A DNA stretch of 64,000 bases from NCBI GenBank assembly GCA_046597065.1, contig JBKJLI010000003.1, positions 290,841 to 354,840 of the forward strand, read 5' to 3'. Origin of the DNA: Candidatus Saccharimonadia bacterium (GTDB lineage: Bacteria > Patescibacteriota > Saccharimonadia > UBA4664 > SCTI01). A program made the position numbers and the translations under genes. Of this stretch, positions 7,610-63,041 are shown one piece after another (position 1 is the first letter of the stretch; each line of letters starts with the position of its first letter). Below the pieces are notes generated by a model, which did not search any database, had not been told where the DNA came from, and saw nothing but the letters and a program-made list of their open reading frames with translations.

Positions 7610-8149
7610 TTAGCTGCCAGAGATCATACGACCACAGGCAGGCCATGGCGACCAGCCGCGAACGGCAAAGTCGGCCTGAGCCTTAGCATCCTGAACCTCG
7701 GCCGGAGCCTGGTCGGGACGGGCAAAACCACCATAGCCATTCCAAGTACCCAATGAGTACTGGTAGGCGCCGTAGTAGCCGTTACCACTGTTGCGAGTGT
7801 AGGTGTTACCCGACTCACATAGACGTAAGCGGTACCAGGTATCGGCGGTGGCTGGAGCGTTGGCAACGGTTACAATCCGGACTCGCGCCTTAGCAGCCTT
7901 TTGGGCAGCCTTAGCGGCTTGAGCCTGACGCAATGGAGTCAAAACATCGGTATCGAAGTTGGGCTCCGTTGGTTTAGTCACCGCCAGTGCGGTAGCCGAG
8001 CTAGTATCTAGAGTTAGCTTGTAAGGTACGGTTTGGGCTACAGCTGCATGAGCTGTATTAGCCTGAAGCATGATCGGCAGAGCCGTCACAATTTGGGCTG
8101 GACTGGCCAACAGTAACAGTAAAGTGGCCAGAGTGTGTAAGCGGTACAT
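7610..8149 (-). CDS. Secreted Rpf-like transglycosylase-domain protein
   Basis: Carries a signal peptide. The C-terminal sequence WYRLRLCESGNTYTRNSGNGYYGAYQYSLGTWNGYGG matches the resuscitation-promoting-factor transglycosylase-like domain. Confidence 0.75.
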   Translation of the reverse strand: MYRLHTLATLLLLLASPAQIVTALPIMLQANTAHAAVAQTVPYKLTLDTSSATALAVTKPTEPNFDTDVLTPLRQAQAAKAAQKAAKARVRIVTVANAPATADTWYRLRLCESGNTYTRNSGNGYYGAYQYSLGTWNGYGGFARPDQAPAEVQDAKAQADFAVRGWSPWPACGRMISGS

Positions 8150-11468: not shown

Positions 11469-12007
11469 TTACCATTATGGGGCCAATTGGATCCGGTAAA
11501 ACCGATCAGGCGCAGCGTTTAGCCGCCGATTTAGGGTGGCTAACCTTTTCAACCGGCCAATTAGTGCGCGAGGATGGCGATGTCGCTGCTATGGCAGCCG
11601 CCCAGATAGGCAAGCTTGCCCCCACAGCATACGTCCAAGAGTTGGTACTTGCCAAAATCAAATCGATCCCCAAAACTACCGGCATTATTTTAGATGGTTC
11701 ACCGCGAATGTTGGCCGAGGTTGAGCGAATGGAGCGCGACCTGCCCAAATTAGGGCGCAAACTTAATTTGGCCATTTTTTTGCAGATTAAAGAGTCGGTA
11801 GTCGAGCAACGTCTGGCCAAGCGCGGCCGTAGCGATGATCAACCCGAGATTATTAGAGTGCGCTGGGATGAGTACCAGCGAGATACCGTTCCAGTGGTGG
11901 CTTATTTACGCTCAAAGGAAGCGGTTTGTGAAGTTGAGGCCGATGCCAGCCTGGATGAAGTTGCCATTTCGATCAAAAAATGTTTGGAACAACGTGGTCT
12001 CATCTAG
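11456..12007 (+). CDS. adk: Adenylate kinase (short form)
   Basis: P-loop IMGPIGSGKT and motif GIILDGSPR. Confidence 0.8.
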   Translation: MAPLITIMGPIGSGKTDQAQRLAADLGWLTFSTGQLVREDGDVAAMAAAQIGKLAPTAYVQELVLAKIKSIPKTTGIILDGSPRMLAEVERMERDLPKLGRKLNLAIFLQIKESVVEQRLAKRGRSDDQPEIIRVRWDEYQRDTVPVVAYLRSKEAVCEVEADASLDEVAISIKKCLEQRGLI

Positions 12008-12749
12008 CCAGATTAAAACAGCCGGCGAAATCGCCACAATGCGGCGTGGCGGTAGGATGCTGGCGCAAGTGCTAGAGGTTGTTGGAATGGCGGCCAAACC
12101 TGGCATAACGCCGGCCGAGCTAAGCGCCTTGGCCGGTCGCGAGGTACAGCGACTTGGAGGTGAACCGGCCTTTTTAGGCCATCAGGGCTTTTCGGCACCC
12201 ATCTGCATATCGGTCAACGATGCGGTGGTACATGGTATACCGGGCAAAATCCCACTGCGCGATGGTGATATCGTTGGGCTAGATTTTGGCGTGCGGCTAA
12301 ATGGTATGCTAACCGATGGCGCGGTTACAGTTGCTGTCGGATCAATCGATTCTGAAGCCCAGCGGTTACTAGATGTAACTAAAGCGGCGCTTGCGGCTGG
12401 CATTAAGGCGTCTCGCGGTGGCAATCGGGTGGGCGATATATCGGCGGCCGTCGAGCGGGTGCTAAGGGCCGGCGGCCTCGGTGTGATTGAGGATTTGGTT
12501 GGTCATGGCGTTGGCCACAGCCTGTGGGAGGAGCCTCAGGTTCCCAACTACGGCCCGGCCGGCAAGGGCCCCAAGCTGGTTCCGGGTATGACCATTGCGA
12601 TTGAGCCGATGGCGACCCTGGGCAGCCACCAAATCAAGACCGACAGCGACCACTGGACCATCCGCACTATCGATGGCAGCCTGGCCGCCCAGTTCGAACA
12701 CACAATTGCCATTACCCCCGGTGCTCCCCAAATTCTGACCGCCCTTTAG
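11994..12749 (+). CDS. map: Methionine aminopeptidase type I
   Basis: N-terminal IKTAGEIATMRRGGRML plus metal-binding D, D, H, E, E residues. A GTG start at 11994 is chosen instead of the ORF-track ATG at 11835. Confidence 0.8.
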   Translation: MVSSSQIKTAGEIATMRRGGRMLAQVLEVVGMAAKPGITPAELSALAGREVQRLGGEPAFLGHQGFSAPICISVNDAVVHGIPGKIPLRDGDIVGLDFGVRLNGMLTDGAVTVAVGSIDSEAQRLLDVTKAALAAGIKASRGGNRVGDISAAVERVLRAGGLGVIEDLVGHGVGHSLWEEPQVPNYGPAGKGPKLVPGMTIAIEPMATLGSHQIKTDSDHWTIRTIDGSLAAQFEHTIAITPGAPQILTAL

Positions 12750-12770
12750 ATTGCATCAGCTTGCCTTCGG

Positions 12771-14066
12771 GTGAGCGTAACCACTATAATGGGGGTTAGC
12801 GATAAGGAGCGGACACAGCAAGTGGCAGCCCGCGGGCAAGAAGAAATTTTCATCGGTTTAGATATTGGCAGCACCAAAGTGTGCTGTATTGTTGGTCTGC
12901 ACGAAGAAACCGCCGCCCAGCCTAGTATTATTGGAGTTGGTGTCGCGCCGGTTTCGGGACTACGCAAAGGCGAGGTCATAGATATTGAAGAGACGGTTTC
13001 ATCAATCACCGCGGCGGTTGATGAGGCTGAACGAATTTCTGGCGTCCCGATTGACCGAGCCACTATCAACCTAGACGGTGCTCACGTAGAGAGCCTAAAC
13101 TCTAGCGGCGTGATCGCAGTGGGTCGCGCTGATCAAGAGATCTCTGTAGAGGATGTTCGCCGCGCTGAGGAAGCCGCCGCCGCCGTCCAGCTACCGCCAA
13201 ACCGCGAGATCATCCAAATGTTCCCGCGCTCGTTTAGCGTTGATGGTCAGCATAATATTAAAGACCCAGTAGGAATGAACGGTGTGCGGCTAGAGGTCCA
13301 GACCCATGTTGTCACTGGCTCTATCCCTGTAATAAAGAACTTACATCGCAGCATTTATCAGGCTGGTATTGATATTGAAGGTCAGGTACTGGTACCCTTG
13401 GCCGCCGCCCGTGCGGTTTTAACCAAAAAGCAGATGGAGCTAGGTGTAGCGGTTGTTGATATAGGTGGAGGCACTACCGGCGTTGCGATTTATGAGGAAG
13501 GGGAGATTCTTTATTCAAGCGTGTTGCCCGTTGGGGCTACCCACATTACAAACGATATTGCGATTGGGCTACGTACAGATGTAGAAGTGGCTGAAAAAAT
13601 TAAGCTTGAACATGTCAAAGCTTACGTTGGCCGGCCAATTGCCGCCAGCGAAAAAGTAAGGATAGATGAGTTGGGGAGTGAAGCCGGGCTAGTATCAAAG
13701 CGGGATCTATTTGGGATCGCCGAAGCTCGCTTAGAAGAGATTTTTGGTATGGTACACGATGAGTTCAAAAAGGTGCATAAGGCTGGGATGTTACCCGGCG
13801 GGGTTGTACTAACCGGCGGAGGTGCCAAAATGCCAGGTATTGAACAGCTTGCAAAGCAGTTATTAAAGCTACCGGTAGTGATTGGTAAGCCCGAGGGTTT
13901 AAGCGGTTTAAGTGATAAAGTTAATGATCCGGCCTTTGCAGTACCGGTAGGTCTGATGCTAGAGAATATGAACTACGCCGGTGGCAGCGGCAGTGGTCGA
14001 ACAAGCGATAGATTAGGCGATACCGTAGATAGGATTCGCAAAACACTTCGTAATTTACTGCCTTAA
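12771..14066 (+). CDS. ftsA: Cell division protein FtsA
   Basis: FIGLDIGSTKV actin-fold N-terminus. Start is uncertain within 12771-12822. Confidence 0.85.
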   Translation: MSVTTIMGVSDKERTQQVAARGQEEIFIGLDIGSTKVCCIVGLHEETAAQPSIIGVGVAPVSGLRKGEVIDIEETVSSITAAVDEAERISGVPIDRATINLDGAHVESLNSSGVIAVGRADQEISVEDVRRAEEAAAAVQLPPNREIIQMFPRSFSVDGQHNIKDPVGMNGVRLEVQTHVVTGSIPVIKNLHRSIYQAGIDIEGQVLVPLAAARAVLTKKQMELGVAVVDIGGGTTGVAIYEEGEILYSSVLPVGATHITNDIAIGLRTDVEVAEKIKLEHVKAYVGRPIAASEKVRIDELGSEAGLVSKRDLFGIAEARLEEIFGMVHDEFKKVHKAGMLPGGVVLTGGGAKMPGIEQLAKQLLKLPVVIGKPEGLSGLSDKVNDPAFAVPVGLMLENMNYAGGSGSGRTSDRLGDTVDRIRKTLRNLLP

Positions 14067-16754: not shown

Positions 16755-19673
16755 ATGACCGACACTCTGGCTGCCGCATCTGTGGCAGCAACACCTGAAC
16801 CCAAGGGCATGACAGTGAAGCGTCGCTTCACCACGCCTGGGGTGCACCCGTTCGACACCGTCGAGTGGGAGTTGCGTGACGCTCGCATTGGACACGGCGA
16901 CAAGGTCGCGTTCGAGCAGAAGGGCGTCGAGTTCCCGACTACCTGGAGCCAGAACTCAACCAACATCGTGGCCCAGAAGTACTTCCGCGGTCAACTGGAC
17001 TCGCCAGCGCGAGAGCGTTCGGTGAAGCAGATGATCTCGCGAGTGGCCAACACCATTACCGAATGGGGCCATGAGCACGGATACTTCGCCACTCAGGAAG
17101 ACGGCGATGCGTTCCAGGACGAGCTGACCTACTTCCTGTTGCACCAGATGGCGGCCTTTAACAGCCCGGTCTGGTTCAATGTCGGGTTTGAAGATCAGCC
17201 GCAGTGCAGCGCCTGCTTCATCCTCAGCGTCGACGACACCCTGGATTCGATTCTGGACTGGAACACCAAGGAAGGTAAGATCTTCCGTGGTGGCTCTGGA
17301 TCGGGCATCAACCTGTCGAACATCCGCGGCTCGGTAGAGCCGTTGAGCAAGGGCGGCACGGCCTCTGGGCCGGTGTCGTTCATGCGCGGGACCGATTCTT
17401 GGGCTGGCACCATCAAGTCCGGCGGCAAGACGCGTCGGGCGGCTAAGATGGTCATCCTCGACATCGATCACCCGGATGTGGGTGAGTTCATCTGGTGCAA
17501 GGCCAAGGAAGAGGACAAGGCCGAGGCCTTGCGCGACGCCGGCTTCGACATGTCGATTGACGGCGAAGGGTTCAAGAGCATCCAGTATCAGAACGCCAAC
17601 AACTCGGTGCGTGTGAGCGATGAGTTCATGCGTGCCGTTGAGGCAGATGAGACATGGGTGCTGAAGGCGCGGGCCGATGGTTTGCCGGTAGGCGAGCCGA
17701 TTCCGGCTCGTGAGCTGATGCGTGACATCGCCAAAGCCGCCTGGCGCTGCGCTGATCCTGGTGTACAGTATGACACCGTGATCAACCAGTGGCACACCTG
17801 CCCGAAGTCTGGGCGCATCAACGCCTCGAACCCCTGCAGCGAGTACATGCATGTCGATAACTCGGCCTGCAACCTCGCCAGCCTCAACCTGATGAAGTTC
17901 CGTCAGCCGGACGGCACGCTGGACGTGGCAGCTTACGAGCATGCCATCGACATCGTGTTCATGGCTCAGGAAATTCTGGTGGGACCGTCGAGCTACCCGA
18001 CCGATGAGATCGGGATCAATGCTCGGGCGTTTCGTCAGCTTGGTATGGGGTACACCAACCTCGGCGCCTACCTGATGGCAGACGGCACTCCGTACGACTC
18101 GGATGCCGCTCGTGGAACGGCAGCGGCCCTTGCGGCGCTGATGACCGGTCGGGCCTATCGCCAGTCAGCCATGATGGCTGATGCAGTCGGCCCGTACGAG
18201 CGCTACCAGCTCAACCACGAGGGTCACATGGGTGTGATGCAGATGCATCGTGATGCGGCCCACGAGCTGCCGGATTCAGGGGTTGCGGATACGGCGTTGC
18301 ATATGGCCGCCCGTAATGCGTGGGACGATGTGGTCGAACTTGGCAACGAGTACGGCTTCCGTAACGCCCAGGCCACGGTGCTCGCGCCGACGGGGACGAT
18401 TTCGTTCCTGATGGACTGCGACACCACAGGTGTTGAGCCGGACTTCTCCTTGGTGAAGTTCAAGGAGCTGGTGGGCGGCGGTCAGATGACCATCGTTAAC
18501 CAGACGATCCCAAGTGCCCTTGCCAATCTTGGGTACACGCCCGAGCAGGTAGAGGCAATCAAGGACTACATCGAGGAGCCGATTCCGGTTGGCGAACCCG
18601 TAGATGGGGTGCAGCTGATGCAGGCTCGTGGCACCATCGTTGGTGCCCCGGGGATCAGCAAAGAGGATCTGCCGGTGTTCGATGTGGCGGTGGGTGAGCG
18701 GGCGATCGCTCCGATGGGTCACATCAAGATGATGGGCGCTGTTCAGCCCTTCATCAGTGGTGCGATCTCGAAGACGGTCAACATGCCGGCTAGCTCGACG
18801 GTCGAAGACATCTACGATGCCTACATGGATTCGTGGAAGCTCGGCGTGAAGGCACTGGCCATCTACCGCGATGGGTCTAAGACGGCCCAGGCGCTGCGCA
18901 CCGATGCGCAGTTGGGCCAGGATGGTGCGGCAGATGAGCCGTTGTTCACACAGGCTCAGGTGGATGAGTTGATCACCAAGGCCAATGGCTCAATCGGCCC
19001 GTTGCGTCGCAAGATGCCTCGGGAGCGACAGTCATTGACCCACAAGTTCACGATCGGTGGACACGAGGGTTACATCACTGCCGGCAAGTACGAGGACGGC
19101 ACGCTGGGTGAGATCTTCCTGACCGACATCGGGAAGGAAGGTTCAACCATGCGAGGGATGATGAACTCCTTCGCCACGATGGTTTCGATCGCGCTCCAGT
19201 ACGGTGTGCCGCTCGAGACTCTGGCAAGGAAGTTCAGCTACGTTCGCTTTGAGCCGGAGGGGATCACACAGAACATCGAGATCCCGTTCGCAAAGAGCAT
19301 GCCCGACTACATCATGCGTTGGTTGGCTTCGCGCTTCCTCGATCCTAGCATTCAGCTGGAATTGGGGATCAGAACGCCGGCCGCCGAAGCATTGAAGGCG
19401 GATCAAGAGGCTGCCACCAGTGTGCTGGAAACAGCTGCACCGGTGGTGAAAACTCCTGCAAAGCCGCCTGGTGCAGAGCTGGGTCCTCAGGGTTCCATTA
19501 CCCACACCGCCGCAGCTGAGGGCAATGGCAACGGAGTTCATCAGCCGGTCATGACACAACACAACGTGCAGTTGGACGCTGGCCCTCCATGCAAAATCTG
19601 TGGAGGCATGACACAGCGTTCGGGAGTCTGCTACGTTTGCTCCCAGTGCGGTGCAACAACCGGTTGCAGTTGA
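16755..19673 (+). CDS. nrdJ: Adenosylcobalamin-dependent (class II) ribonucleoside-diphosphate reductase NrdJ, with C-terminal zinc ribbon
   Basis: 972 aa with class II RNR motifs and a CxxC...CxxC C-terminus. G+C is markedly higher than in flanking genes. SD sequence aggag lies 4 nt upstream. Confidence 0.9.
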   Translation: MTDTLAAASVAATPEPKGMTVKRRFTTPGVHPFDTVEWELRDARIGHGDKVAFEQKGVEFPTTWSQNSTNIVAQKYFRGQLDSPARERSVKQMISRVANTITEWGHEHGYFATQEDGDAFQDELTYFLLHQMAAFNSPVWFNVGFEDQPQCSACFILSVDDTLDSILDWNTKEGKIFRGGSGSGINLSNIRGSVEPLSKGGTASGPVSFMRGTDSWAGTIKSGGKTRRAAKMVILDIDHPDVGEFIWCKAKEEDKAEALRDAGFDMSIDGEGFKSIQYQNANNSVRVSDEFMRAVEADETWVLKARADGLPVGEPIPARELMRDIAKAAWRCADPGVQYDTVINQWHTCPKSGRINASNPCSEYMHVDNSACNLASLNLMKFRQPDGTLDVAAYEHAIDIVFMAQEILVGPSSYPTDEIGINARAFRQLGMGYTNLGAYLMADGTPYDSDAARGTAAALAALMTGRAYRQSAMMADAVGPYERYQLNHEGHMGVMQMHRDAAHELPDSGVADTALHMAARNAWDDVVELGNEYGFRNAQATVLAPTGTISFLMDCDTTGVEPDFSLVKFKELVGGGQMTIVNQTIPSALANLGYTPEQVEAIKDYIEEPIPVGEPVDGVQLMQARGTIVGAPGISKEDLPVFDVAVGERAIAPMGHIKMMGAVQPFISGAISKTVNMPASSTVEDIYDAYMDSWKLGVKALAIYRDGSKTAQALRTDAQLGQDGAADEPLFTQAQVDELITKANGSIGPLRRKMPRERQSLTHKFTIGGHEGYITAGKYEDGTLGEIFLTDIGKEGSTMRGMMNSFATMVSIALQYGVPLETLARKFSYVRFEPEGITQNIEIPFAKSMPDYIMRWLASRFLDPSIQLELGIRTPAAEALKADQEAATSVLETAAPVVKTPAKPPGAELGPQGSITHTAAAEGNGNGVHQPVMTQHNVQLDAGPPCKICGGMTQRSGVCYVCSQCGATTGCS

Positions 19674-47430: not shown

Positions 47431-48657
47431 ATGATTGATCTAAGGCAGCTACGAGCTAACCCCGAACCATACCAGACCTCAGCCAAACTACGAGGCATAA
47501 AGGTTGATATCGAAAAACTACTCAAACTTGATGCCGAGCGCCCAAACCTGCTTGCAACTGTTGAGGCTCTGCGGGCTAAATTAAACGTTAAGGGTAAGCC
47601 GTCTGTCGCCGAACTTAAGGATCTACAGGCAGCCAAGGCCGAGTTAGCGCCTCTTGAAGTTAAGTTGCAAAAACTTGAAGCTGAATTGGCCGACTTGGCT
47701 AGCCAGTTGCCGAATTTGATGGCCGATGGTACTCCCGAAGGTGGCGAGGAGCATAATCACCAAGAGCGCCGCTGGGGTAAGGCCGAAATTAACCCACAGG
47801 CCAAAGATCACTTAACACTGGCCGAAACCAACGACTGGGTCGATTTTGAGCGTGGCGCCAAGGTGGCCGGTTCTAAGTTTTACTTCACCAAAGGTGCGGC
47901 TGTCCGATTAGAAATGAGCGTGGTTAGGATGGGGATGGATTTGCTCGAAAAGTCTGGGTTTACCTTAATGGGGGTGCCTCACCTGGCAAATGCCGTCACC
48001 ATGAACGGCACAGGGTTTAACCCACGTGGAGAGGAAAAGCAGATTTATGAGATTAAGGATCAAGATCTTAATTTGATAGCTACAGCCGAAATCCCACTGA
48101 CCGGCTATCATGCCGGCGAAATAATCGATCCAGCTAAATTGCCCTTACTATACGTTGGCTATAGCCCCAGCTACCGACTAGAGGCCGGTGCCTATGGCAA
48201 ATACAGTAAGGGTCTATACCGGGTGCATCAGTTTAACAAGTTAGAAATGTACGTTTACTGCCAGCCGGCAGACAGCGAAAAGTGGCATCAAAAGTTGGTC
48301 GAGATCGAAGAAGATATCTGTAAACAGCTTGAGATCCCATATCGGGTGGTTAGGATCGCATCAGGAGACCTGGGCGGCCCCGCTTACAAAAAGTACGATA
48401 TCGAGTACTGGAGTCCAGTTGAGGGCGAGTATCGTGAGCTGATGAGCTGCTCTAATGTTACCGACTACCAAGCCCGCCGTCTTAGCATTCGTACTCGTGC
48501 AAAAGATGGCTCCACCGAGTTTTTACATACCCTAAATGGAACCGCTATGGCCACCAGTAGGATATTTATCGCCTTACTCGAAAATCACCAAACTGTAGAC
48601 GGAAAAGTTAAGCTACCTAAGGCTTTGCAAACTTATTATGGAGGAGAGCATCTATGA
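47431..48657 (+). CDS. serS: Seryl-tRNA synthetase
   Basis: N-terminal coiled-coil arm plus a class II core. The -10 element TATAAT lies 9 nt before the ATG, so the mRNA is likely leaderless. Confidence 0.9.
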   Translation: MIDLRQLRANPEPYQTSAKLRGIKVDIEKLLKLDAERPNLLATVEALRAKLNVKGKPSVAELKDLQAAKAELAPLEVKLQKLEAELADLASQLPNLMADGTPEGGEEHNHQERRWGKAEINPQAKDHLTLAETNDWVDFERGAKVAGSKFYFTKGAAVRLEMSVVRMGMDLLEKSGFTLMGVPHLANAVTMNGTGFNPRGEEKQIYEIKDQDLNLIATAEIPLTGYHAGEIIDPAKLPLLYVGYSPSYRLEAGAYGKYSKGLYRVHQFNKLEMYVYCQPADSEKWHQKLVEIEEDICKQLEIPYRVVRIASGDLGGPAYKKYDIEYWSPVEGEYRELMSCSNVTDYQARRLSIRTRAKDGSTEFLHTLNGTAMATSRIFIALLENHQTVDGKVKLPKALQTYYGGEHL

Positions 48658-49022
48658 TTTCACTACAAGTCACCGGTCGACATTTTGAGGTTGATGACAA
48701 AATTGCTGAGTATCTTGATAAGAAGATCGGTAATTTAGATAAGTATTTGCCAAAAAAAGTTTTACCGACGTATTGCGGAGTGATGCTGGCTGTTGATGGA
48801 TCAAACAAAGAAGGTAACGCTAACACTTGCGAAGTAATAATTGATATTCCCGGTGAGCGCTTTCAAGCTACCGAGGCTACTGGCAACATGTACGCAGCCA
48901 TTGATATCTGCGAAGAAAAGTTGAAACATCAGATAAGCCGGTACAAAGATAAGCATGACCCAGCGCGTAATCGTGGACGACGCATAATTGGGAAGCTGTT
49001 CCAGCCCTCCGAAGAAGAATAG
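48654..49022 (+). CDS. hpf: Ribosome hibernation promoting factor (short HPF/RaiA)
   Basis: 122 aa sigma-54-modulation-protein fold. Confidence 0.8.
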   Translation: MISLQVTGRHFEVDDKIAEYLDKKIGNLDKYLPKKVLPTYCGVMLAVDGSNKEGNANTCEVIIDIPGERFQATEATGNMYAAIDICEEKLKHQISRYKDKHDPARNRGRRIIGKLFQPSEEE

Positions 49023-49067: not shown

Positions 49068-51647
49068 ATGAATCTGAAAAAAAGCCTAGATAAACTGTTT
49101 GGCGACATCAGCAAGCGCGAGGTCACTAAGGCTCGCCGACTGGTAGAGCAGGCTAACGCGCTCGAAGCCAGCATTAAAAAGCTAACCGATGCCAAGCTAA
49201 AGGCGCGTACGGTTGAGCTAAAGCAGCGGGTAGAGCAGGGAGAAGAGCTCGACAACCTGTTGCCCGAGGCATTCGCAACTGTGCGCGAAGCGGCTCAGCG
49301 AGTAATTGGCCAACGTCACTACGACGTCCAGTTGGTTGGTGGGATAGTTTTACACGATGGCAACATCGCTGAAATGCGCACCGGAGAGGGTAAAACCCTA
49401 GTGGCTACCGCCCCAACTTACCTAAACGCATTGACTGGTAAAGGCGTTCACGTGGTAACAGTAAACGATTATTTAGCGCGGCGTGATGCCGGCTGGATGG
49501 CACAGATTTACCACGCCCTGGGATTAACCACTGGAGTGATCGTGCCCGAAGCCACTTTTGGTGTATCTGCCTATCTGTTCGATCCCGAATTTAATGACGA
49601 GTCGGCCGATGACGATCGTCTGCGTCATCTTCGCCCTGTGCCTCGAGCCGAGGCATATGCTGCCGATATCACTTATGGCACCAACAACGAGTTTGGTTTT
49701 GATTATCTACGCGACAACATGGTTTCGGATGCCGGCCAGATGGTGCAGCGTCCGTTGAATTATGCGATTGTTGATGAGGTTGACTCGATTTTGATTGATG
49801 AGGCCCGCACTCCCTTAATTATTAGTGCACCAGCCGAGGAAAGTACCGATAAGTACAACCAGTTTGCCAAGCTTGCCCACGCTCTTACGCCGGAGGCCGA
49901 TTATACGGTAGATGAAAAAGACCGAGCCGTAAGTTTAACCGAGGAAGGTATCGCTAAGCTCGAAAAAGCCTTAGGCGTCGAAAACATCTACGAATCGGGA
50001 GGCATAGAGGATATTCACCATGTCGAGCAGAGCTTAAAGGCCGAGGCGGTTTACAAACGCGACCGCGACTACGTGGTTCGTGATGGTGAGGTCTTGATTG
50101 TTGATGAGTTCACTGGCCGGTTGCTGCAGGGTAGACGCTATAGCGATGGGCTGCATCAGGCTATCGAAGCCAAAGAAGGTGTACACATTCGCCAGGAATC
50201 ACTAACCCTTGCTACCATCACCTTTCAGAACTACTTTCGGTTATACGCAAAGCTGGCTGGTATGACCGGTACAGCCGAAACCGAAAAAGAAGAGTTCTTT
50301 AAGATTTACCAGCTAGAAGTCGTAATTGTACCAACCCATATGCCGATGATCAGAGAAGACCATGCCGATCGTATTTATCGCAGCGAGATGGGGAAGTTTC
50401 AGGCAGTCGCAAACGAGATTGCCAACCGGAATAAAACCGGCCAACCGGTACTGGTAGGGAGTGCTTCGATCGAAAAAAACGAGCTGCTTAGCCAGATATT
50501 GGGCCAAATGCGCGTAAAGCATGAGATTTTAAACGCTAAGAACAACCAGCAGGAGGCGGCAATTGTGGCTCGGGCTGGTCAAAAAAGCGCCATTACGCTG
50601 GCCACCAACATTGCCGGCCGCGGCACCGATATTGTTTTGGGCGAAGGCGTTACTAATTTGGGGGGCCTGCACGTGATTGGTACTGAGCGTAACGAATCGC
50701 GCCGCATTGATAACCAGTTGCGCGGCCGTGCCGGACGTCAGGGCGACCCCGGCTCCAGCCAGTTTTTTGTTTCACTCGAAGACGATCTGATGCGTATCTT
50801 TGGAGGGGACCGCGTTACTGGTTTGCTGGCCGCTTTGGGGCTTAACGACGACGCACCCCTAGAAAACCCTACTGTTAGCCGCTCACTCGAAAATGCCCAG
50901 AAAAAGGTGGAGGGCCACAACTTTGATATCCGCAAACAGGTGGTGGATTTCGATGACGTCATGAACCGGCACCGTGAGGCAGTTTACGGTCGACGTCGCC
51001 GAGCCATGGAAAATGCCAATTTGCGTTCAGATGTGGAAAAGATGCTCGATACGGAGTTCGATAACCTGGTAGTAACCCATACCGATACCCGAACAGGGGT
51101 TACCGAGATCGATCAGATCATTGAATCTGCCAGTGCCATTATGCCTGTAGAGCCGGCTTTAGTAGATAAACTTAAGCAAACTGACCCCCGCGATCTGTCA
51201 GACACACTCAAAGAGTATGCGCGCGATCTATATAGCGCACGGGAACAGCAGTTTAGCCCAGATGCAACCAGGGTAATGGAGCGATTGGTTTATTTACAGA
51301 TTCTTGATCGACTATGGATTGAGCACCTAGAGGCTATGGAGCGGTTGCGCGAGGGGATTGGTTTGCGCTCAATTGGTCAGCGCGATCCGTTGGTTGAGTA
51401 CAAGAGTGAGGGTTTCAAGCTATTTAAACGCTTACTACAACTACTAGATGCCGAGATTGCCGGCACCATCTTTAGAGTTTCAATAACTCAAGAGCCTACA
51501 CCTGCACCGGTAGAGACGGCCGTTACCAAAGCTGCCGCCCATGCCAATGTGTTAGCAGATACCAGTCAGGCAGGGAGTGATGGAGCTGTAGGTGTAAACC
51601 GAGCTGATCGTAGAGCCTCCAAAAAGGCCCGTAAGCGACGGCGCTGA
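49068..51647 (+). CDS. secA: Preprotein translocase ATPase SecA
   Basis: 859 aa with DEAD-like motor motifs. Confidence 0.95.
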   Translation: MNLKKSLDKLFGDISKREVTKARRLVEQANALEASIKKLTDAKLKARTVELKQRVEQGEELDNLLPEAFATVREAAQRVIGQRHYDVQLVGGIVLHDGNIAEMRTGEGKTLVATAPTYLNALTGKGVHVVTVNDYLARRDAGWMAQIYHALGLTTGVIVPEATFGVSAYLFDPEFNDESADDDRLRHLRPVPRAEAYAADITYGTNNEFGFDYLRDNMVSDAGQMVQRPLNYAIVDEVDSILIDEARTPLIISAPAEESTDKYNQFAKLAHALTPEADYTVDEKDRAVSLTEEGIAKLEKALGVENIYESGGIEDIHHVEQSLKAEAVYKRDRDYVVRDGEVLIVDEFTGRLLQGRRYSDGLHQAIEAKEGVHIRQESLTLATITFQNYFRLYAKLAGMTGTAETEKEEFFKIYQLEVVIVPTHMPMIREDHADRIYRSEMGKFQAVANEIANRNKTGQPVLVGSASIEKNELLSQILGQMRVKHEILNAKNNQQEAAIVARAGQKSAITLATNIAGRGTDIVLGEGVTNLGGLHVIGTERNESRRIDNQLRGRAGRQGDPGSSQFFVSLEDDLMRIFGGDRVTGLLAALGLNDDAPLENPTVSRSLENAQKKVEGHNFDIRKQVVDFDDVMNRHREAVYGRRRRAMENANLRSDVEKMLDTEFDNLVVTHTDTRTGVTEIDQIIESASAIMPVEPALVDKLKQTDPRDLSDTLKEYARDLYSAREQQFSPDATRVMERLVYLQILDRLWIEHLEAMERLREGIGLRSIGQRDPLVEYKSEGFKLFKRLLQLLDAEIAGTIFRVSITQEPTPAPVETAVTKAAAHANVLADTSQAGSDGAVGVNRADRRASKKARKRRR

Positions 51648-51742
51648 TCCAATTATTCTATAATCATTAGAACTTTATACAATTATCAACTGTCAGATTA
51701 ACCAATCTGAGTGTAAACGTTAGAATTATCACCTATAAACTA

Positions 51743-51771
51743 TTGACAAATAACACAATTAATGCTATATT
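51743..51771 (+). promoter_or_regulatory. Strong sigma70-like promoter: TTGACA, 17 nt spacer, TATATT
   Basis: Consensus -35 element, 17 nt spacer and a good -10 element in an AT-rich intergenic region. Confidence 0.5.
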
Positions 51772-51777
51772 AGCTCA

Positions 51778-51990
51778 TTCACTCTGAATGGGTGTTGAGG
51801 CGGATTCAGAAAGTCTGCTTGGACACACTTCACCGAGAGGATCGTTGACAAGCTGGATAGTCATGGGTCGCTTAAGATCCATGCGACTACTTTAAATATT
51901 GAGAGTTACAGCTTAGGGTTTTGACCTTATGGGCAACACTCTGCAAATGTACCCGTGCCGCCCACGGTACATTTGCAGGTTGTTGTTTGT
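51778..51990 (+). ncRNA. Candidate ~210 nt non-coding RNA or attenuator leader, running from the predicted TSS to a strong intrinsic terminator
   Basis: The promoter above is followed ~165 nt later by a 16 bp stem (ctgcaaatgtacc-c-gtg / cacggtacatttgcag, one bulge) and ttgttgtttgt. It contains internal hairpins and only a 34-codon ORF with no SD. Confidence 0.35.
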
Positions 51991-52125
51991 AAGCGTTGAA
52001 ACACAAAGGCCACGTGCTTTCAACTTAACCCCGTTCATCCAGAAAGGATGATGCCTCGTGGCAACTGACAGCAGGATGGTCGGGGGAAACTTCCTGGCCA
52101 CAACGACCACCAAGGAGAAGTGACG

Positions 52126-53355
52126 ATGCGCTCCATGCTCATCAAGCTGTTCCTGGTCGCGCTCGTCGCGGCCATCTTCACCATCCCGGCAGTGGCCTCG
52201 GCCGCTTCCACGGCACCGGTCGCTCACGCGGCTTCGTCGTACTGCGGCCCCCCGGCCATGAACAAGACCCAGTGGGTTTCGTTCTGGAGAGACCATCCGA
52301 ACTCGTCGCTCACCAAGAGCTTCGAACGGCTGGTCCGAGCGGACGCCAAGCACACCCACATCAAGAAGGATCAGACCTTCTTGTCGTGGGCTCAGTCCCC
52401 GAACATCAAGATCGTCAGGACACCGCCTGGCTACAGGCTGGATTCCAACACCTATTGCCCTGGTGGGCAGTACCAGCCGTATCCAGATCTCCTGGGCTAC
52501 GGCAACCAACTCACGCCTTCATGGTGTGAGGGTGGCGCGAAGCCGTCCACGACGGTGACGAAGGTGCAAAAGCGTGGCAAGTGGTACTACAAGTACACCA
52601 CCACTGTCACTGAGTCCTGCGCGCCTCTCGCCAAGGGATACTGCCGCAACCGGGCGACTGGGAAGTCGTTCAAGGTCGTCAAGCGCAAGGTGACGTATAA
52701 GCGCATCAAGCACAAGACGCCCAAGTGCGGCTGCAAGCCCAAGCCCAAGCCGCCGCCTGCACAGGTCAACTACTGCCCCAACGGTTCGCCGGTGGTCAGC
52801 GGTGTTGCCTGTGTCAATCAGTCTCAAGCCCAGGAGGTCAAGCAGGACTGCAAGGGTCCGAACGTTGACAGCACTCAGTGCATCAGCATTCAGATCCAGC
52901 AGCAGATCGTGTGCGGCAACGGCACGATCATCATCGGGAGCAGTACCACGACGTCGACCACTGGTGACCAGTGCAACACGGTCATCGTGGTGCCACCCCC
53001 GCCGCCGCCGGTCTGCATCCCGCCGACCACCGGTACGTACCCGAACTGTCAGGTTCCCACCTGTCCGGCGGGCACAACCGGTACCTACCCGGTCTGCAAT
53101 GCTCCGGCGGTTTGCCCCGCTGGTGACCTGCAGGCAACCGACACCACCTTGAGTGGCTTCGGTTACCGTACTGGTGACTTTCTCGGCATTGCCGGGGGGT
53201 ATTTCCAGTACTACGTTCGGGCTGATGGTTCGGGCAAGCTGTTCTTTGCGAAGGATTACACCTCGGTGCAGTCCAGTTACACGAACGGCAGCCCGATCTG
53301 TGGCAAGGCCAACCCGGCCGGCCCCGGAGGCACACCGCCTCCGCCGTCGCCGTAG
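52126..53355 (+). CDS. Secreted Cys-rich, Pro-rich protein encoded in a high-G+C island
   Basis: SD sequence aaggag lies 8 nt before the ATG. It has a signal peptide, many Cys residues, a PPPPPPP linker and strong GC3 bias. Antisense ORFs here are artefacts of the G+C content. Confidence 0.55.
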   Translation: MRSMLIKLFLVALVAAIFTIPAVASAASTAPVAHAASSYCGPPAMNKTQWVSFWRDHPNSSLTKSFERLVRADAKHTHIKKDQTFLSWAQSPNIKIVRTPPGYRLDSNTYCPGGQYQPYPDLLGYGNQLTPSWCEGGAKPSTTVTKVQKRGKWYYKYTTTVTESCAPLAKGYCRNRATGKSFKVVKRKVTYKRIKHKTPKCGCKPKPKPPPAQVNYCPNGSPVVSGVACVNQSQAQEVKQDCKGPNVDSTQCISIQIQQQIVCGNGTIIIGSSTTTSTTGDQCNTVIVVPPPPPPVCIPPTTGTYPNCQVPTCPAGTTGTYPVCNAPAVCPAGDLQATDTTLSGFGYRTGDFLGIAGGYFQYYVRADGSGKLFFAKDYTSVQSSYTNGSPICGKANPAGPGGTPPPPSP

Positions 53356-53397
53356 GGCAGAAGCAGAAGTAGTCGCGCTCCGAAAGGAGTAACGGTT

Positions 53398-53424
53398 GGG
53401 GGTCGAGCTTTTAGCTCGACCCCC
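53398..53424 (+). terminator. GC-rich hairpin (gggggtcgagc / gctcgaccccc) after the Cys-rich gene
   Basis: Perfect 11 bp inverted repeat with no strong T-tract. Confidence 0.4.
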
Positions 53425-53591
53425 GCCGTACCACTTGTTACTCATGACTATCCAGTTTGCTGATCCCTCACATGAGGTGGTTCTTTAACAATTTAAGCTA
53501 CTGATTAACAAATTTACGAACCCAACCTGTGAATTAAATTAACAAACTCATACTTGTCGGCGCTAATGTCGACTTGAGAGGAGAGTAAACC

Positions 53592-54422
53592 ATGAAACTT
53601 ACCAAGACTCGAATAGCTGCTGCTGTTGCCACTAGTGCAATTGCAGTTGCGCTTCCAATCGCTGCTTTAGCGGCTTTTGGTCCCGATCGTCAAACCTATG
53701 TCTGTGGCCAGGCTGGCATCTGCCAGGGTGCTGACCACGTTCAGTTTGACTCTTTTACCAATAACCCAAGCTACGATCAGCATGATGAGCGTAACTTCTT
53801 AACCATTCGTCCGGCTGCCGGAGGTGCTTACACCGATGTGCAGACCCTAACGGTTGGTCAAGAGTATGTCGTTCGTGCTTACGTACACAACAATGCCGAT
53901 CCAGCGTTAACCAACACACCCAGCGATTACACCGCCGAAAACACCGCCTTTAAGGTGGCAATTCCTAGCGAAGTAAACGGTGACGCGTTGGTTACCGGTA
54001 CCATTTCAGCTTCAAACGCTCAGCCAGGTAGTGTTTATGACACTGTTAGCCTAAAGAGTGGTGAAAAGCTAAAGCTAAACTACGTGGCCGGTTCGGCCAA
54101 GTGGACCAGCAATGGTGCTTCTAACGGTGCTGCTTTAAGCGACAACGTTTTAACTAGTGGCGCTTTACTTGGTTACGATAGCCTAAACGGTGAACTACCA
54201 GGATGCTTCGGCTTTTCCGGTTATGTCAGCCTAAAGGTTAAGGCCGAGAAAATCGAAACTCCAGTAACCCCACCCGTTACTACCACCCCAACTGCCTTAC
54301 CGCAGACAGGTGCTGAAGCCGCCGGCCTAGCCGGTGTCGCCGGAACCGGTGTTGTTGGTTACGCTGCTATGGCTTATCGCCGCAGCAAGCGTGCCCTCGC
54401 TACCGCCATCCGCAACAAGTAA
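53592..54422 (+). CDS. LPXTG-anchored cell-wall surface protein (sortase substrate)
   Basis: Signal peptide, then an LPQTG motif followed by a hydrophobic stretch and an RRSKR tail. Confidence 0.8.
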   Translation: MKLTKTRIAAAVATSAIAVALPIAALAAFGPDRQTYVCGQAGICQGADHVQFDSFTNNPSYDQHDERNFLTIRPAAGGAYTDVQTLTVGQEYVVRAYVHNNADPALTNTPSDYTAENTAFKVAIPSEVNGDALVTGTISASNAQPGSVYDTVSLKSGEKLKLNYVAGSAKWTSNGASNGAALSDNVLTSGALLGYDSLNGELPGCFGFSGYVSLKVKAEKIETPVTPPVTTTPTALPQTGAEAAGLAGVAGTGVVGYAAMAYRRSKRALATAIRNK

Positions 54423-54604
54423 GTTTGATTTCAGTAGCTTTTAGTTAACCGACTAGAGTCGCGGGCCATTGCGGCCCGTAACTCTTAGTTGGCGCCTGTC
54501 GCTAAAACTTCAGGCCGCAAGCAGCCCCGCCTCTATGCATTCGTGCGCAGAAGCCAGGGGCTTTTTGCGTTTAAAAATGGTATTTTCAGGTATAATTGAG
54601 CCCA

Positions 54605-55693
54605 ATGCAAACGCTACAAAAACAGTTAAATGAACTAAAAACACGGGTCGAAGACGCAATGTCACGGCTTAAATTGAGCGATACTCAAGCCGAGCTCGAA
54701 CAGCTTGATGTCAAAATGGCTCAACCCGATTTTTGGGATGACCCAAATAAGGCCGCTGCCGAAAGTAAGCAAGCTTCTGCGTTGCGCAACCACATTGATA
54801 GTTGGGTGCAGTTGCACAAAGACGTAGCGGTGGCTGGTGAGCTGGCCGATTTGGGAGATGAGTCGATGCAAGCCGACATCGAGGTTAACTTTCAGCGCTT
54901 AAAAACCCAGTACGAATCCAAAGAGTTTGAGCTAAAACTTTCGGGTGAGTACGACCGTGGCAGTGCTATTTTGTCGATTTATGCCGGTACCGGCGGTACT
55001 GACGCTCAAGACTGGGCCGAAATGCTCTTGCGAATGTACTTACGTTTTACAGAGGCTAATGGCTGGCAAGCTGAGGTTGTCGACCGCTCAGATGGCGAAG
55101 AGGCCGGAATTAAAAGCGTAACGGTCGAAATTGTTGGTGCTTACGTCTATGGCAAACTAAAAAGTGAAAAGGGGGTGCACCGGCTGGTACGCCTGAGCCC
55201 GTTTAACTCCGACAACTTACGCCAAACTAGCTTTGCGATGGTCGACATTATGCCGCAACTGGATCATCCCGAGGAGTTTGAGATAGATGAAAGCGATTTG
55301 CGCATAGATGTATACCGCGCCGGCGGCCATGGTGGACAGAGCGTTAATACCACCGACAGCGCAGTACGCATTACTCACATCCCAACCAATACCGTGGTGG
55401 CAATTCAGAATGAGCGTTCGCAACTACAAAACAAAGAAAAGGCACTAGCAATCTTAAAAGCTAGACTTAACGTTTTAATGATTGAACAACAAAAGGCTGA
55501 GCTCAGCGAGTTACGCGGCGCACCGCAGTCGGCCGATTGGGGCAGTCAAATCCGCAGTTATGTTCTGCACCCTTACGCAAAAGTAAAAGATCATCGCACC
55601 GGGCATGAAACCAACGCCGCCCAAGCTGTACTTGATGGCGAAATTGAGCCTTTTATAGATGCCTATCTACAGGATCAAATCGGTAAATCCTAG
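54605..55693 (+). CDS. prfB: Peptide chain release factor 2 (contiguous ORF, no programmed frameshift)
   Basis: SPF and GGQ motifs. The -10 element TATAAT at 54583-54588 places the ATG at 54605 as a near-leaderless start. The track ORF starts at TTG 54596. Confidence 0.85.
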   Translation: MQTLQKQLNELKTRVEDAMSRLKLSDTQAELEQLDVKMAQPDFWDDPNKAAAESKQASALRNHIDSWVQLHKDVAVAGELADLGDESMQADIEVNFQRLKTQYESKEFELKLSGEYDRGSAILSIYAGTGGTDAQDWAEMLLRMYLRFTEANGWQAEVVDRSDGEEAGIKSVTVEIVGAYVYGKLKSEKGVHRLVRLSPFNSDNLRQTSFAMVDIMPQLDHPEEFEIDESDLRIDVYRAGGHGGQSVNTTDSAVRITHIPTNTVVAIQNERSQLQNKEKALAILKARLNVLMIEQQKAELSELRGAPQSADWGSQIRSYVLHPYAKVKDHRTGHETNAAQAVLDGEIEPFIDAYLQDQIGKS

Positions 55694-55751
55694 ATTGATC
55701 AAACTTATGCTTAGGCTTTCGGGTCGTTGCGATGGATGCTAAAATAGCCAG

Positions 55752-56432
55752 GTGATTTTATTCGATCGCGTAACTAAGATGTACCCCAATAAGTCGATAG
55801 CGCTTAGCGGGTTAAATCTGCATATTCAGCCCAAAGAGTTTGTAACGATTGTTGGTGCCAGTGGCGCCGGTAAGTCAACCTTAATCAAACTGCTAACTCG
55901 TGAAGAGGTACAGTCTTCGGGCAAGATCATTGTGGGCGGCTTAGATTACGACACCATTATTTATAAGAACATCCCACATTTGCGTCGGCGCATTGGGGTG
56001 GTCTTTCAAGATTTTAAATTGCTGCAAAACCGCAACGTATATGAAAACGTATCATTTGCCTTAGAAGTGGCCGGCGCTCCAAACCGCGAAATTAAACGGG
56101 CCGTACCTAGGGTACTTCAGATGGTTGGATTGACCGGCAAAGAAAAGAATTTCCCCGCCGAGCTTTCGGGTGGTGAGCGCCAGCGCGTTGCCATCGCCCG
56201 GGCATTGGTGCGTCAGCCCAAAATATTAATTGCCGATGAGCCTACTGGCAACCTGGATCCTAAAAATGCCTGGGAGATCATTGACCTGCTTCTTAAGATT
56301 AATCGCTTTGGGACGACTGTTCTCTTAACTACTCACAATAAAGAAATCGTTAACGCCTTAAAGCGTCGCGTAGTAACGATTCAACGCGGACGGATTATTA
56401 AGGATGAAGAGCAGGGGAGGTACGCCCTGTAA
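55752..56432 (+). CDS. ftsE: Cell-division ABC ATPase FtsE
   Basis: Walker A GASGAGKST and the signature LSGGERQR. Confidence 0.9.
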   Translation: MILFDRVTKMYPNKSIALSGLNLHIQPKEFVTIVGASGAGKSTLIKLLTREEVQSSGKIIVGGLDYDTIIYKNIPHLRRRIGVVFQDFKLLQNRNVYENVSFALEVAGAPNREIKRAVPRVLQMVGLTGKEKNFPAELSGGERQRVAIARALVRQPKILIADEPTGNLDPKNAWEIIDLLLKINRFGTTVLLTTHNKEIVNALKRRVVTIQRGRIIKDEEQGRYAL

Positions 56433-61862: not shown

Positions 61863-63041
61863 ATGGAACCAATCCCCGAAATCGCAATTGGTGTTAAGGC
61901 CTTTTTAAACATCCTCAATGAAACAATGGGGTTTGCTTTCCCGTCGGTGACGATCGAAGGCGAGGTATCGAGCTACAAAGTTAATCAAGGCAAGTGGGTA
62001 TTTTTTGATCTAAAAGATGAAGACGCAACTCTACCATGCTTCATGCCGATTTTTCATCTAAAAGTGCCTTTAGAAGATGGTATGAAAGTTAAGGTTACCG
62101 GTGTCCCCAAAGTTACCAACTGGGGCAAGTTTAGTCTAACTGTTAAAACTGTACAGCTAGCCGGGGAGGGTGAGCTGCGACGAGCTTTTGAGTTGCTTAA
62201 AGCCAAGCTTGAGGCCGAAGGACTGTTTGCCGAAGAGCGTAAACGCCAACTGCCACGCTTTCCGCGCACGATTGGGCTGATAACTTCTGGCGCCTCTGAC
62301 GCCTATGCCGATTTCATTAAAATTCTTGCTACCCGCTGGGGAGGTTTGACGGTACGGCTCGCCGACATCCAGGTACAAGGTGCACCTGCGCCGGGGCAAG
62401 TAGTAAATGCCATCAACTACTTTAACCAACTAGCAACGCCACCGGATGTGCTAGTGATTACGAGAGGTGGGGGAAGCCTAGAAGATCTACAAGCATTTAG
62501 TACCGAGGATGTGGCCCGGGCGGTGGCATCGAGCCGAACCCCCACGATAGTGGGGGTTGGCCACGAACGCGACATCAGTTTGGCCGACTTAGCTGCCGAT
62601 CGACGTGCCGCCACCCCAACCGATGCCGCCCGCTTAGTAGTCCCAGAGCGCCTCGAGGTACTGCAGCAAGTTGACGTCCTAGCTCGTCGTAGTGAGCAGT
62701 TGCTACGTGGCCGGCTGCAGTCCGCCGATATCCGTATTGATCGCCAAGTGGCATTGCTGGAACGCTTTGTACGCCTGCCCGCCACTCAGCTACAACAGTT
62801 AAACGCGCGACTGCTAACTGCCCAAAAACGCAGCGCTGAACGGGCAGGTGAGCGGCTGCGTTCCCTTGAGCGCTTACTGGCCAGCTTTAACCCGCAGGCC
62901 ACCTTAAAGCGCGGCTATGCTATCGTGCGAAGTGGTGATCGGGTGGTGACAAGGCCCGAACAGGTTTCGAGCGGAGACGGCCTCGTGATACAATTGGCGG
63001 CAGGAAAACTAAGCGCAAAGGTGGAAAATGGCAGAGATTAA
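61863..63041 (+). CDS. xseA: Exodeoxyribonuclease VII large subunit
   Basis: OB-fold N-terminus and catalytic core. The -10 element TATACT lies 7 nt before the ATG, so the mRNA is likely leaderless. Confidence 0.85.
   Translation: MEPIPEIAIGVKAFLNILNETMGFAFPSVTIEGEVSSYKVNQGKWVFFDLKDEDATLPCFMPIFHLKVPLEDGMKVKVTGVPKVTNWGKFSLTVKTVQLAGEGELRRAFELLKAKLEAEGLFAEERKRQLPRFPRTIGLITSGASDAYADFIKILATRWGGLTVRLADIQVQGAPAPGQVVNAINYFNQLATPPDVLVITRGGGSLEDLQAFSTEDVARAVASSRTPTIVGVGHERDISLADLAADRRAATPTDAARLVVPERLEVLQQVDVLARRSEQLLRGRLQSADIRIDRQVALLERFVRLPATQLQQLNARLLTAQKRSAERAGERLRSLERLLASFNPQATLKRGYAIVRSGDRVVTRPEQVSSGDGLVIQLAAGKLSAKVENGRD

Follow-up and report, generated by a model that had tools for sequence, protein, structure and literature searches.

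A conserved structured RNA between secA and prfB in Saccharimonadia and its possible role as the leader of a ribosomal RNA operon-like unit

The secA-prfB locus and its RNA element

The stretch of DNA considered here, 64,000 nucleotides (nt) from Candidatus Saccharimonadia bacterium (contig JBKJLI010000003.1; hereafter the window), has a GC content of about 50% and carries serS, hpf and secA, followed after a gap by a gene for a Cys-rich secreted protein (the cargo gene), a second secreted-protein gene and the release-factor gene prfB. The subject of this analysis is the RNA element that starts in the gap, together with a strand complementary to it past the cargo gene (Table 1). An initial annotation had described 51743-51990 as a stand-alone promoter-to-terminator unit, either an independent small RNA (sRNA) or a terminating leader of the downstream gene. 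The element proves to be a new structured RNA, found class-wide and supported by covariation, that lies outside Rfam. The SecA relatives in the genome collection are from Saccharimonadia (TM7, within the candidate phyla radiation, CPR), with best identities of 62-74%; related loci are designated below by L numbers.

Table 1. Features of the region from serS to the gene ahead of prfB, in window coordinates.
Feature	Position	Strand	Remarks
serS	47431-48657
hpf	48654-49022
secA	49068-51647
Gap between secA and cargo gene			478 bp
Sigma-70-type promoter	51743-51771	+	-35 TTGACA, 17-nt spacer, extended -10 TGcTATATT; score 11/12
P1/P2, 5'-terminal hairpin domain	51782-51837	+	predicted in the minimum-energy fold; boxB position relative to boxA1
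boxA1-like motif GGATCGTTGACAAG	51839-51852	+	directly 3' of P1/P2; putative assignment
Leader strand, core CAAGCTGGATAGTCATGGGT with nearly invariant GGATAGTCA	51849-51868	+	boxC position; extended pairing about 51837-51880
P3 hairpin (AUGGGUC / GAUCCAU)	51863-51882	+	5/6 pairs changed on both sides; 77-82% of alignment cells pair
P4, long irregular hairpin with conserved bulge	51928-51991	+	23/27 pairs compensatory; 92-98% of alignment cells pair
Rest of 5' untranslated region: small hairpins, AAGGAG ribosome-binding site	51992-52125	+	conserved with L094, partly with L001 and L024; no promoter-like site
Cargo gene, 409-aa Cys-rich secreted protein with signal peptide	52126-53355	+	no Pfam, no PHROG; about 60-61% GC
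GC-rich hairpin GGGGGTCGAGC-TTTTA-GCTCGACCCCC	53398-53424	+	no T-run; directly upstream of trailer
Trailer strand ACTCATGACTATCCAGTTTG	53440-53459	+	complementary to leader strand; extended pairing about 53427-53470
Small hairpin CCTCA-ca-TGAGG, then boxA2-like motif GTTCTTTAACAATTT	53466-53494	+	boxA2 at 53480-53494
276-aa secreted protein with C-terminal LPQTG sortase signal	53592-54422	+	80% identical in L094

The TTGACA-N17-TATATT promoter of the initial annotation holds up, with a TG extended -10 in addition. At two mismatches the full pattern has 2 sites in 64 kb against 0.36 expected, and a TTGAC-N17-TGnTAnnnT promoter lies at equal distance in all 16 relatives first examined, and also in L017 and L021; each copy of the element has such a promoter. 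Transcription would start at about 51777-51779. A promoter scan of the window up to 56000 found no other plus-strand promoter-like site between the leader and the cargo gene, and scans of L045, L001 and L017 found no further plus-strand promoter ahead of their cargo genes.

A search of the intergenic region with nhmmer against 80 SecA loci gave matches in 13 Saccharimonadia loci, with E-values down to 5e-21, and a covariance model built from 16 sequences finds 19 full and two partial (L021, L010) copies in Saccharimonadia. A pattern scan of metagenomes returned 12 matches, only three of them true homologues, which added three further copies; a scan of viral contigs gave none. The element is conserved across soil Saccharibacteria and stands at the secA...prfB locus in at least 20 related genomes. 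It is not always adjoining secA, but it is always between secA and prfB, with zero to two genes (murD, murI or an M16 peptidase gene, for example) inserted between secA and the element. The covariance model finds no second copy in the window, and a repeated element of the repetitive extragenic palindrome or miniature inverted-repeat transposable element type is ruled out, as the hairpin core occurs there once.

No Rfam family accounts for this RNA. Rfam 15, whose families include riboswitches, raiA, 6C and RsaE, has no match at the gathering threshold in the whole window, and at E<=10 over 51500-52300 it returns only chance-level fragments of miRNA, PYLIS and Hatchet models, far below their thresholds. 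This agrees with the earlier failure to recognize 6S RNA, signal recognition particle (SRP) RNA, transfer-messenger RNA or RNase P by eye; the domain IV motif of SRP RNA, the 5'/3' closing stem and central bubble of 6S RNA and the P4 signature of RNase P are all missing. Both the Rfam search and the search of relatives for compensatory changes had been proposed with the initial annotation, and whereas the former matched no family, the latter revealed a conserved, covarying element.

For the 215-nt RNA the predicted folding energy is -82.7 kcal/mol (z = -6.1). Its 5'-terminal domain, P1/P2, has a conserved base (AUCACUCUG...) that pairs with the segment immediately 5' of boxA1 and a variable tip; the closing helix (first against last 26 nt) is predicted in all 16 sequences, which differ from one another, and since P1/P2 varies widely in length this support comes from fold predictions. 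The junction that follows is conserved as CCUUGAAAAGYUGGAUAGUCA (GAUCGUUGACAAGCUGGAUAGUCA in the window). P3 has a local fold of -14 kcal/mol and can be extended to 51858-51889 (UAGUC / GACUA) in the window's clade, and an A-rich linker joins it to P4, the most conserved module of the element, whose apical U-G[CCGCC]C-A (51956-51964) is invariant.

Covariation in P3 and P4 is strong. In a MAFFT alignment of 16 sequences, 26 of 33 P3/P4 pairs are changed on both sides and 88.8% of cells pair, compared with 34-41% when the partners are slid; in the alignment of 19 sequences made with the model, double changes affect 28 of the 33 pairs and the share of pairing cells is 91.4%, compared with 34-43% when slid. 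For either alignment, 0 of 500 shuffles reach the observed value. Three of the 19 aligned sequences were outside model building, and they conform to the model. L094, the closest relative, has UA-to-CG and AU-to-GC double changes inside an otherwise identical P4 stem. P3 and P4 are therefore selected as helices, and the initial view of a non-coding, structured, promoter-driven RNA is strongly backed by both conservation and covariation. The long hairpin that it reported is likewise real (core arms 51934-51953 and 51966-51985, within the full P4 helix), but its internal hairpins cattc/gaatg, ctgaat/attcag and gtcgc/gcgac are not the conserved ones, which are P1/P2, P3 and P4.

P4 may work alone, as in L021 (9943-10058), where the same promoter type is followed after about 25 nt by P4 with the loop AUGCCGCCCAU and a T-rich tail, and where boxA, the leader strand and P3 are lacking. 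A conserved cis partner of the CCGCC loop was not found within -120 to +450 nt. A pseudoknot with the 5' GAGGYGG is rejected because that motif is already paired in P1/P2, and one with a downstream GGGCGG because no conserved partner exists in that range. The partner of the loop is likely a protein or a trans RNA.

The hairpin had been singled out as one of the strongest intrinsic terminators of the window, and this was not confirmed. The stem is a stable GC-rich hairpin, but a conserved uninterrupted U-tract is missing. In the window the T-run after P4 is interrupted (GTTGTTGTTTG), and this tail (GUUGUUGUUUG) folds back onto the 5' flank to form an outer stem in the minimum-energy fold. Most relatives lack a T-run past P4, and their tails (CUGCAGCACA, AUCCUGACC, CUCUUGCUCG) form the outer stem. 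Nor did a consensus scan of the window, which cannot handle the stem bulge, place a terminator at P4 or between the leader and the cargo gene, and the corresponding scans of three relatives (L045, L001, L017) gave the same outcome. P4 is not a conserved terminator, because the T-run past the hairpin is not conserved; what is kept is the stem with its invariant loop.

The claim that the RNA has no coding potential was confirmed, in that its 35-codon open reading frame (ORF) has no protein-level conservation. The frame is conserved neither in length nor in phase, and the corresponding ORFs run from 23 to 59 aa in differing frames and with differing ends. The only 'peptide' they have in common, SWIV(M/K)G, is what the invariant RNA motif gives when translated, and its codons vary at no synonymous third position. 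A small protein or leader peptide is ruled out by this absence of frame and length conservation and of synonymous variation.

Complementary strands and boxA-like motifs around the cargo gene

The leader strand has its complement past the Cys-rich gene, where weak minus-strand matches of the model a few kb downstream in several loci gave the lead. In the window, all 20 core positions pair when read as sense RNA, 18 of them as Watson-Crick pairs and two as G.U. The extended duplex (about 51837-51880 with 53427-53470) has -43.5 kcal/mol, about 5 standard deviations (sd) below the other 50-mers of 52000-56000 (mean -22.7, sd 4.4), and the junction motif occurs in only two copies in 64 kb, one in the leader and one in the trailer. 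Leader/trailer inverted repeats are present in 12 of 20 loci, with arms of 18-40 nt and 76-94% complementarity that enclose 1.3-4.5 kb. Of the eight loci without a trailer, five have under 2.3 kb downstream, too short to reach the partner. The nearly invariant leader-strand motif is GGAUAGUCA, and lineage-specific variants of the strand are matched in both arms (GGATAGATAAGG in L005, CGAATAGTCTAAATATATGAA in L017, CGGATAGTCTATGAGCA in L023).

Whether such arms are repeats of DNA or strands of an RNA helix can be read from their mismatches. A repeat kept at the DNA level predicts equal counts of G.U and A.C, whereas for an RNA helix formed by the transcribed strand only G.U would be expected. 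Read as sense RNA, the arm pairs comprise 238 Watson-Crick pairs, 15 G.U, 1 A.C and 16 other mismatches, counts that are not phylogenetically independent. With 15 G.U against 1 A.C, the inverted arms point to an RNA leader-trailer helix rather than a DNA repeat; complementarity is kept by compensatory change, and the G.U pairs lie on the transcribed strand. The putative helix encloses no rRNA or tRNA, only a signal-peptide ORF with its untranslated regions (UTRs), so that the element may work in the manner of an rrn operon but is not itself one. No 16S signature, which would mark the genome's own rRNA leader, was seen in the window or in the relatives' loci scanned. P3 overlaps the leader strand and cannot form at the same time as the long-range helix. 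Directly ahead of the trailer, a sequence-variable GC hairpin stands at the matching position in all 12 trailer loci; that of the window (53398-53424) is a candidate 3' protective hairpin.

Both strands are accompanied by motifs that resemble boxA. In E. coli rrn the boxA is UGCUCUUUAACAA, or UGCUCUUUAACAAUUUA with its spacer (PMC2724277), and boxA2 shares 13 contiguous bases, CUUUAACAAUUUA, with this boxA and spacer. Relatives have GGTTCTTTGAAAAG (L005), GGAACTTTGACAAG (L004) and GGTACCTTGAAAAG at boxA1, and GGCTCTTTTACAATTT, GGTACTTTCACAA, GTCCTTTCACAATTC, GTTCATTTACAAATT and GTTCCTTTACAC at boxA2, the latter usually after a small hairpin (seen in the window, L092, L089 and L004). The pattern common to both sets is G[UA][UA]CNUUNA[CA]A[AG], also written G[UA][UA]CNUUNACAA, and boxA2 is the only exact match to this degenerate pattern in 64 kb. 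P1/P2 ends 1-2 nt upstream of boxA1. Two features of an rrn-type leader, a near-consensus boxA (boxA2; boxA1 is weaker) and a hairpin immediately upstream of boxA, are therefore found here. In L017, an extra small hairpin and then GGTTCTTGATCT directly past P4 (9049-9080) may be a third boxA-like site. Two other sequences were considered for comparison: GTTCTTTGAAAACT was confirmed only as a conserved primer site of the Mollicutes 16S-23S spacer, and a putative boxC of M. tuberculosis, GAACUCAAUAG, was not used as evidence.

What the strands enclose changes far more quickly than the strands themselves. In L094, leader, trailer and boxA2 are 81-84% identical to the window, with blocks at 100%. 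The whole 350-nt 5' UTR is 84% identical, and the 134 nt from P4 to the start codon match as well as the stretch ahead of P4. Among the proteins, identity is 82% for SecA and 80% for the LPXTG protein, whereas the cargo protein reaches only 53%. Purifying selection therefore acts on the RNA framework, while the secreted protein that it surrounds diversifies quickly. Among 5.8 billion proteins the cargo protein has a sole homologue, that of L094 (1620-2885), and L024 holds a 31% identical cargo homologue at the matching position; the protein is an ORFan that diverges very fast. Cys-rich secreted cargo is found in the window, L001, L024 and L004. In a second clade, the first cargo gene (L020 10402-11322, L045 3911-4840, L012 5932-6786, L022 12346-13341) encodes a conserved protein of about 300 aa with a CxxC motif and an ELRFRRLH(L/I) signature, without Pfam or PHROG family, and other loci have other proteins. 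No Pfam or PHROG family was found in the enclosed genes, which are 10-13 GC points above their flanks in 7 of 12 loci, and a conserved gene for an LPQTG secreted protein lies 3' of the right arm.

On the matching Logan contig, the public gene call (L093 2268-3194) is a 308-aa antisense ORF (window 52519-53445, minus strand) and omits the plus-strand ORF with its signal peptide, ribosome-binding site and homologues. This call is likely a mis-annotation caused by high GC content, and the locus shows how gene callers can go astray in a public record.

A proposed rRNA-operon-like leader and its alternatives

Between the two options of the initial annotation, the leader of the downstream gene is the better one, because no other promoter precedes the cargo gene, the 5' UTR is far better conserved than the protein and the leader pairs with a trailer past the gene. 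Of the 'terminating leader', the same three observations uphold the leader, but the terminating part is not supported, as the T-run is not conserved and the hairpin is flanked by boxA-like motifs. On balance, the flagged region is rather probably the promoter and 5' part of a ~350-nt non-coding structured leader that belongs to an rRNA-operon-like transcription unit enclosing a protein-coding cassette. The layout of such a unit would be promoter, hairpin, boxA, leader strand GGAUAGUCA, P3, P4, the rest of the UTR and the cargo gene, continued by the GC hairpin, trailer, second hairpin, boxA2 and the LPXTG gene. The LPXTG gene is probably the final gene, and the unit probably ends at a GCCCC...GGGGC+TTTTT feature that is followed by a separate prfB promoter (54520-54610).

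By analogy, the unit might work as follows. NusB/NusE and other Nus factors would load at boxA1, and the Nus-loaded RNA polymerase would be resistant to Rho over long untranslated, foreign-looking GC-rich RNA. The Nus complex would hold the leader strand close to the RNA exit channel until the trailer emerges, whereupon a helix of 20-40 bp would form and displace P3. RNase III would then cut the helix and leave a cargo mRNA capped at its 5' end by P3/P4 and at its 3' end by the GC hairpin at 53398-53424, and the complex would be loaded again at boxA2 ahead of the LPXTG gene. The sequences themselves establish the promoter, the conservation, helices P3 and P4, the long-range complementarity with its G.U bias, the boxA matches and the lack of other promoters. 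That the unit is co-transcribed, that Nus factors bind it, that RNase III cuts it and that P4 plays some part are proposals.

The closest parallel is the E. coli rrn operon. There, boxC, which hardly varies, is part of the 5' strand of the 16S leader-trailer helix a short way past boxA and covaries with the trailer only by Watson-Crick/wobble exchange; NusB-bound boxA is proposed to keep this strand at the polymerase until transcription reaches the trailer (PMC10250234). As in E. coli (PMC10250234, PMC2724277), a strong promoter, a hairpin and boxA come first here. The leader strand directly after boxA is nearly invariant and has its pairing partner in a trailer past the payload, with the same type of covariation, and a second boxA comes right after the trailer and ahead of the next gene. 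However, the payload here is not rRNA but a secreted-protein gene that evolves fast and has a structured 5' UTR of its own (P3, P4), the leader strand GGAUAGUCA is unrelated in sequence to the enterobacterial boxC UCUGUGUGGG, and Nus binding and RNase III cleavage are only proposed.

Other systems share parts of this arrangement. In other phyla, boxA precedes suhB and other genes (PMC5725501) as well as arrays of clustered regularly interspaced short palindromic repeats (CRISPR; PMC7665894), where a proposed role is to tune translation or termination by Rho by way of an RNA loop to the polymerase (PMC5725501, PMC7665894). Like the element described here, these are boxA motifs in long untranslated or poorly translated transcripts, but they have neither a leader-trailer helix nor a second boxA. 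The lambda nutL-N leader has a boxA-containing nut site followed by ~200 nt of structured, RNase III-sensitive leader (PMC5725501). It resembles the present element in placing boxA and a highly structured leader ahead of a regulated gene, but it needs the N protein at boxB and has neither a trailer past the gene nor a conserved C-rich apical loop.

Pairing between the ends of one mRNA has its own precedents. In S. aureus icaR and in the fbi/tac elements of hok mRNA, 5'-3' UTR pairing controls stability, translation or RNase III cleavage. The 5' leader pairs with the 3' end of the same mRNA in these cases, as is proposed here, but that pairing masks a ribosome-binding site or a translation activator, whereas here the start codon follows only 260 nt after the paired segment, which has boxA motifs next to it.

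Several points weigh against a boxA-dependent leader-trailer unit. Three loci with 2.9-3.5 kb downstream (L011, L007, L013) show no trailer. The G.U counts are linked by shared descent; a hand count of independent events still gives ~8 or more against 1 (one-sided p ~0.02). The GC hairpin could be an actinobacterial-style terminator without a T-run, in which case leader and trailer would not be in one RNA. boxA1 agrees with the E. coli boxA core at only ~7 of 9 positions; more generally, the putative boxA assignment draws on resemblance to the E. coli motif and on how well the two sites agree with each other, and the consensus in Saccharimonadia may differ. Finally, P4 and its invariant CCGCC loop are neither required nor explained by the boxA/leader-trailer model, and the minimal form in L021 indicates that P4 functions independently of boxA and the long-range helix.

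An sRNA is one alternative. RsaE/RoxS and the actinobacterial 6C RNA present an invariant C-rich loop on a stable hairpin, as P4 does, and a trans-acting RNA of ~210 nt ending at P4 could use the CCGCC loop in their manner as a seed for G-rich targets, with the cargo gene transcribed separately or by read-through. The strong promoter, the stable covarying structure with its invariant single-stranded loop and the moderately T-rich tail past the hairpin in the window, L084 and L021 are all in keeping with this, downstream genes that differ between lineages are expected of an independent RNA gene, and L021 retains only the promoter and P4. Yet most relatives have no T-run past P4 and the tail is held in the outer stem, no promoter precedes the cargo gene, the region past P4 is as conserved as that ahead of it, and the trailer to which the leader strand is complementary lies 1.3-4.5 kb away, with a G.U bias of the kind expected of RNA. 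A conserved partner of the loop was not found nearby, Rfam gave no match (6C and RsaE included), and P4 differs from these RNAs in having a single CCGCC loop in place of CCCC runs and no conserved terminator. The stand-alone unit of the initial annotation is thus largely wrong, and as the main function of the element an sRNA is unlikely. A riboswitch, or another cis leader in which P1-P4 form an aptamer that senses a ligand or protein and controls termination or translation downstream, would explain a long, conserved and covarying 5' UTR structure with invariant unpaired nucleotides, and also the mutually exclusive pairings (P3 against the long-range helix, local against distant partners of the leader strand). 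It is nevertheless improbable: no Rfam riboswitch class matched even at E<=10, neither a conserved terminator nor an element sequestering the Shine-Dalgarno sequence is present, the downstream genes are unrelated ORFans without a metabolic theme, and P1/P2 varies widely in length.

The arms could also belong to DNA rather than RNA. Inverted repeats of 18-40 bp around a surface-protein gene, with a fixed outward promoter and arms that evolve in concert within each genome, are what an invertible segment would show if a recombinase flipped 51869-53440 and so connected or disconnected gene and promoter in phase variation. If the repeats were instead the ends of a non-autonomous mobile element or recombination cassette that brings foreign GC-rich genes into a fixed hotspot, this would suit a bracketed segment that differs in content between lineages and whose GC content lies 10-13 points above the flanks in 7 of 12 loci. 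Both readings meet the strand asymmetry of the arm mismatches (15 G.U against 1 A.C), which points to RNA, and the absence of enzymes to act on the repeats: no recombinase domain was found in the six window genes from serS to prfB, in the ten cargo genes of relatives that were scanned or past prfB among the genes as called in L093, and no recombinase, transposase or phage function in the cargo genes and the LPXTG gene. Moreover, all 20 loci are assembled in one orientation, with P3/P4 directly past the leader strand on the promoter strand, and in several loci the arms are imperfect around the core, so that inversion is very improbable. As for a mobile element, the single repeat pair has no other copies in 64 kb, its place in the chromosome does not change across the class, the left 'end' falls within a leader that is conserved and transcribed, and the cargo has almost no homologues anywhere; this is the least credible of the readings considered. 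An invertible or mobile DNA element is unlikely, then, because of the strand bias, the missing recombinase and the identical orientation in all loci.

If the rRNA-operon-like unit is real, it would give a concrete handle on Nus-factor antitermination, Rho and RNase III in CPR bacteria, and Patescibacteria have been manipulated genetically (PMC10633639). Saccharibacteria and other CPR are epibionts whose surface proteins mediate host contact, and the element precedes one of the fastest-evolving secreted proteins of the genome. A broader scenario, which we put forward tentatively, is that soil Saccharibacteria took over parts of the rRNA-operon machinery (boxA/Nus antitermination, a boxC-like strand, the leader-trailer helix, RNase III) for a surface-protein cassette that is hypervariable, rich in GC and kept at a fixed slot, so that its mRNA is transcribed, cut out and made stable; the leader would also hold the new class-wide P4 module with a partner of its own, and the flanks might serve as homology arms for cassette swapping. 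To our knowledge, RNA-level regulation in CPR is almost uncharted, the few structured RNAs known there being universal ones, and we know of no earlier case of a full rRNA-operon architecture on a protein-coding cassette. The literature searched contained no paper linking boxA with Saccharibacteria or CPR and none on a leader-trailer helix around a protein gene.

Other features of the neighbourhood

The 276-aa protein encoded past boxA2 ends in an LPQTG motif, a hydrophobic stretch and a basic tail; it belongs to no Pfam family and, by these features, is a predicted sortase-anchored surface protein. The release-factor gene comes next, and a TATAAT at 54592-54597 lies only ~9 nt upstream of its ATG (54606), so that its mRNA may be leaderless. 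No obvious programmed-frameshift site was noticed in the release-factor region.

Elsewhere in the window, GC-rich islands (55-61% GC against a background of ~50%) lie at 12001-13000, 17001-19000 and 62001-63000, and the leader motif and further copies of the RNA are absent from all three. Another near-consensus promoter, TTGACA-N17-TGgTATAGT, heads a leader of ~150 nt on the minus strand (8332-8150), for which Rfam has no match. This leader has a hairpin and TTTTTT shortly past its start and lies ahead of an ORF (8149..7610) whose product is a secreted Rpf/transglycosylase-like protein; it may be another attenuator-type leader.

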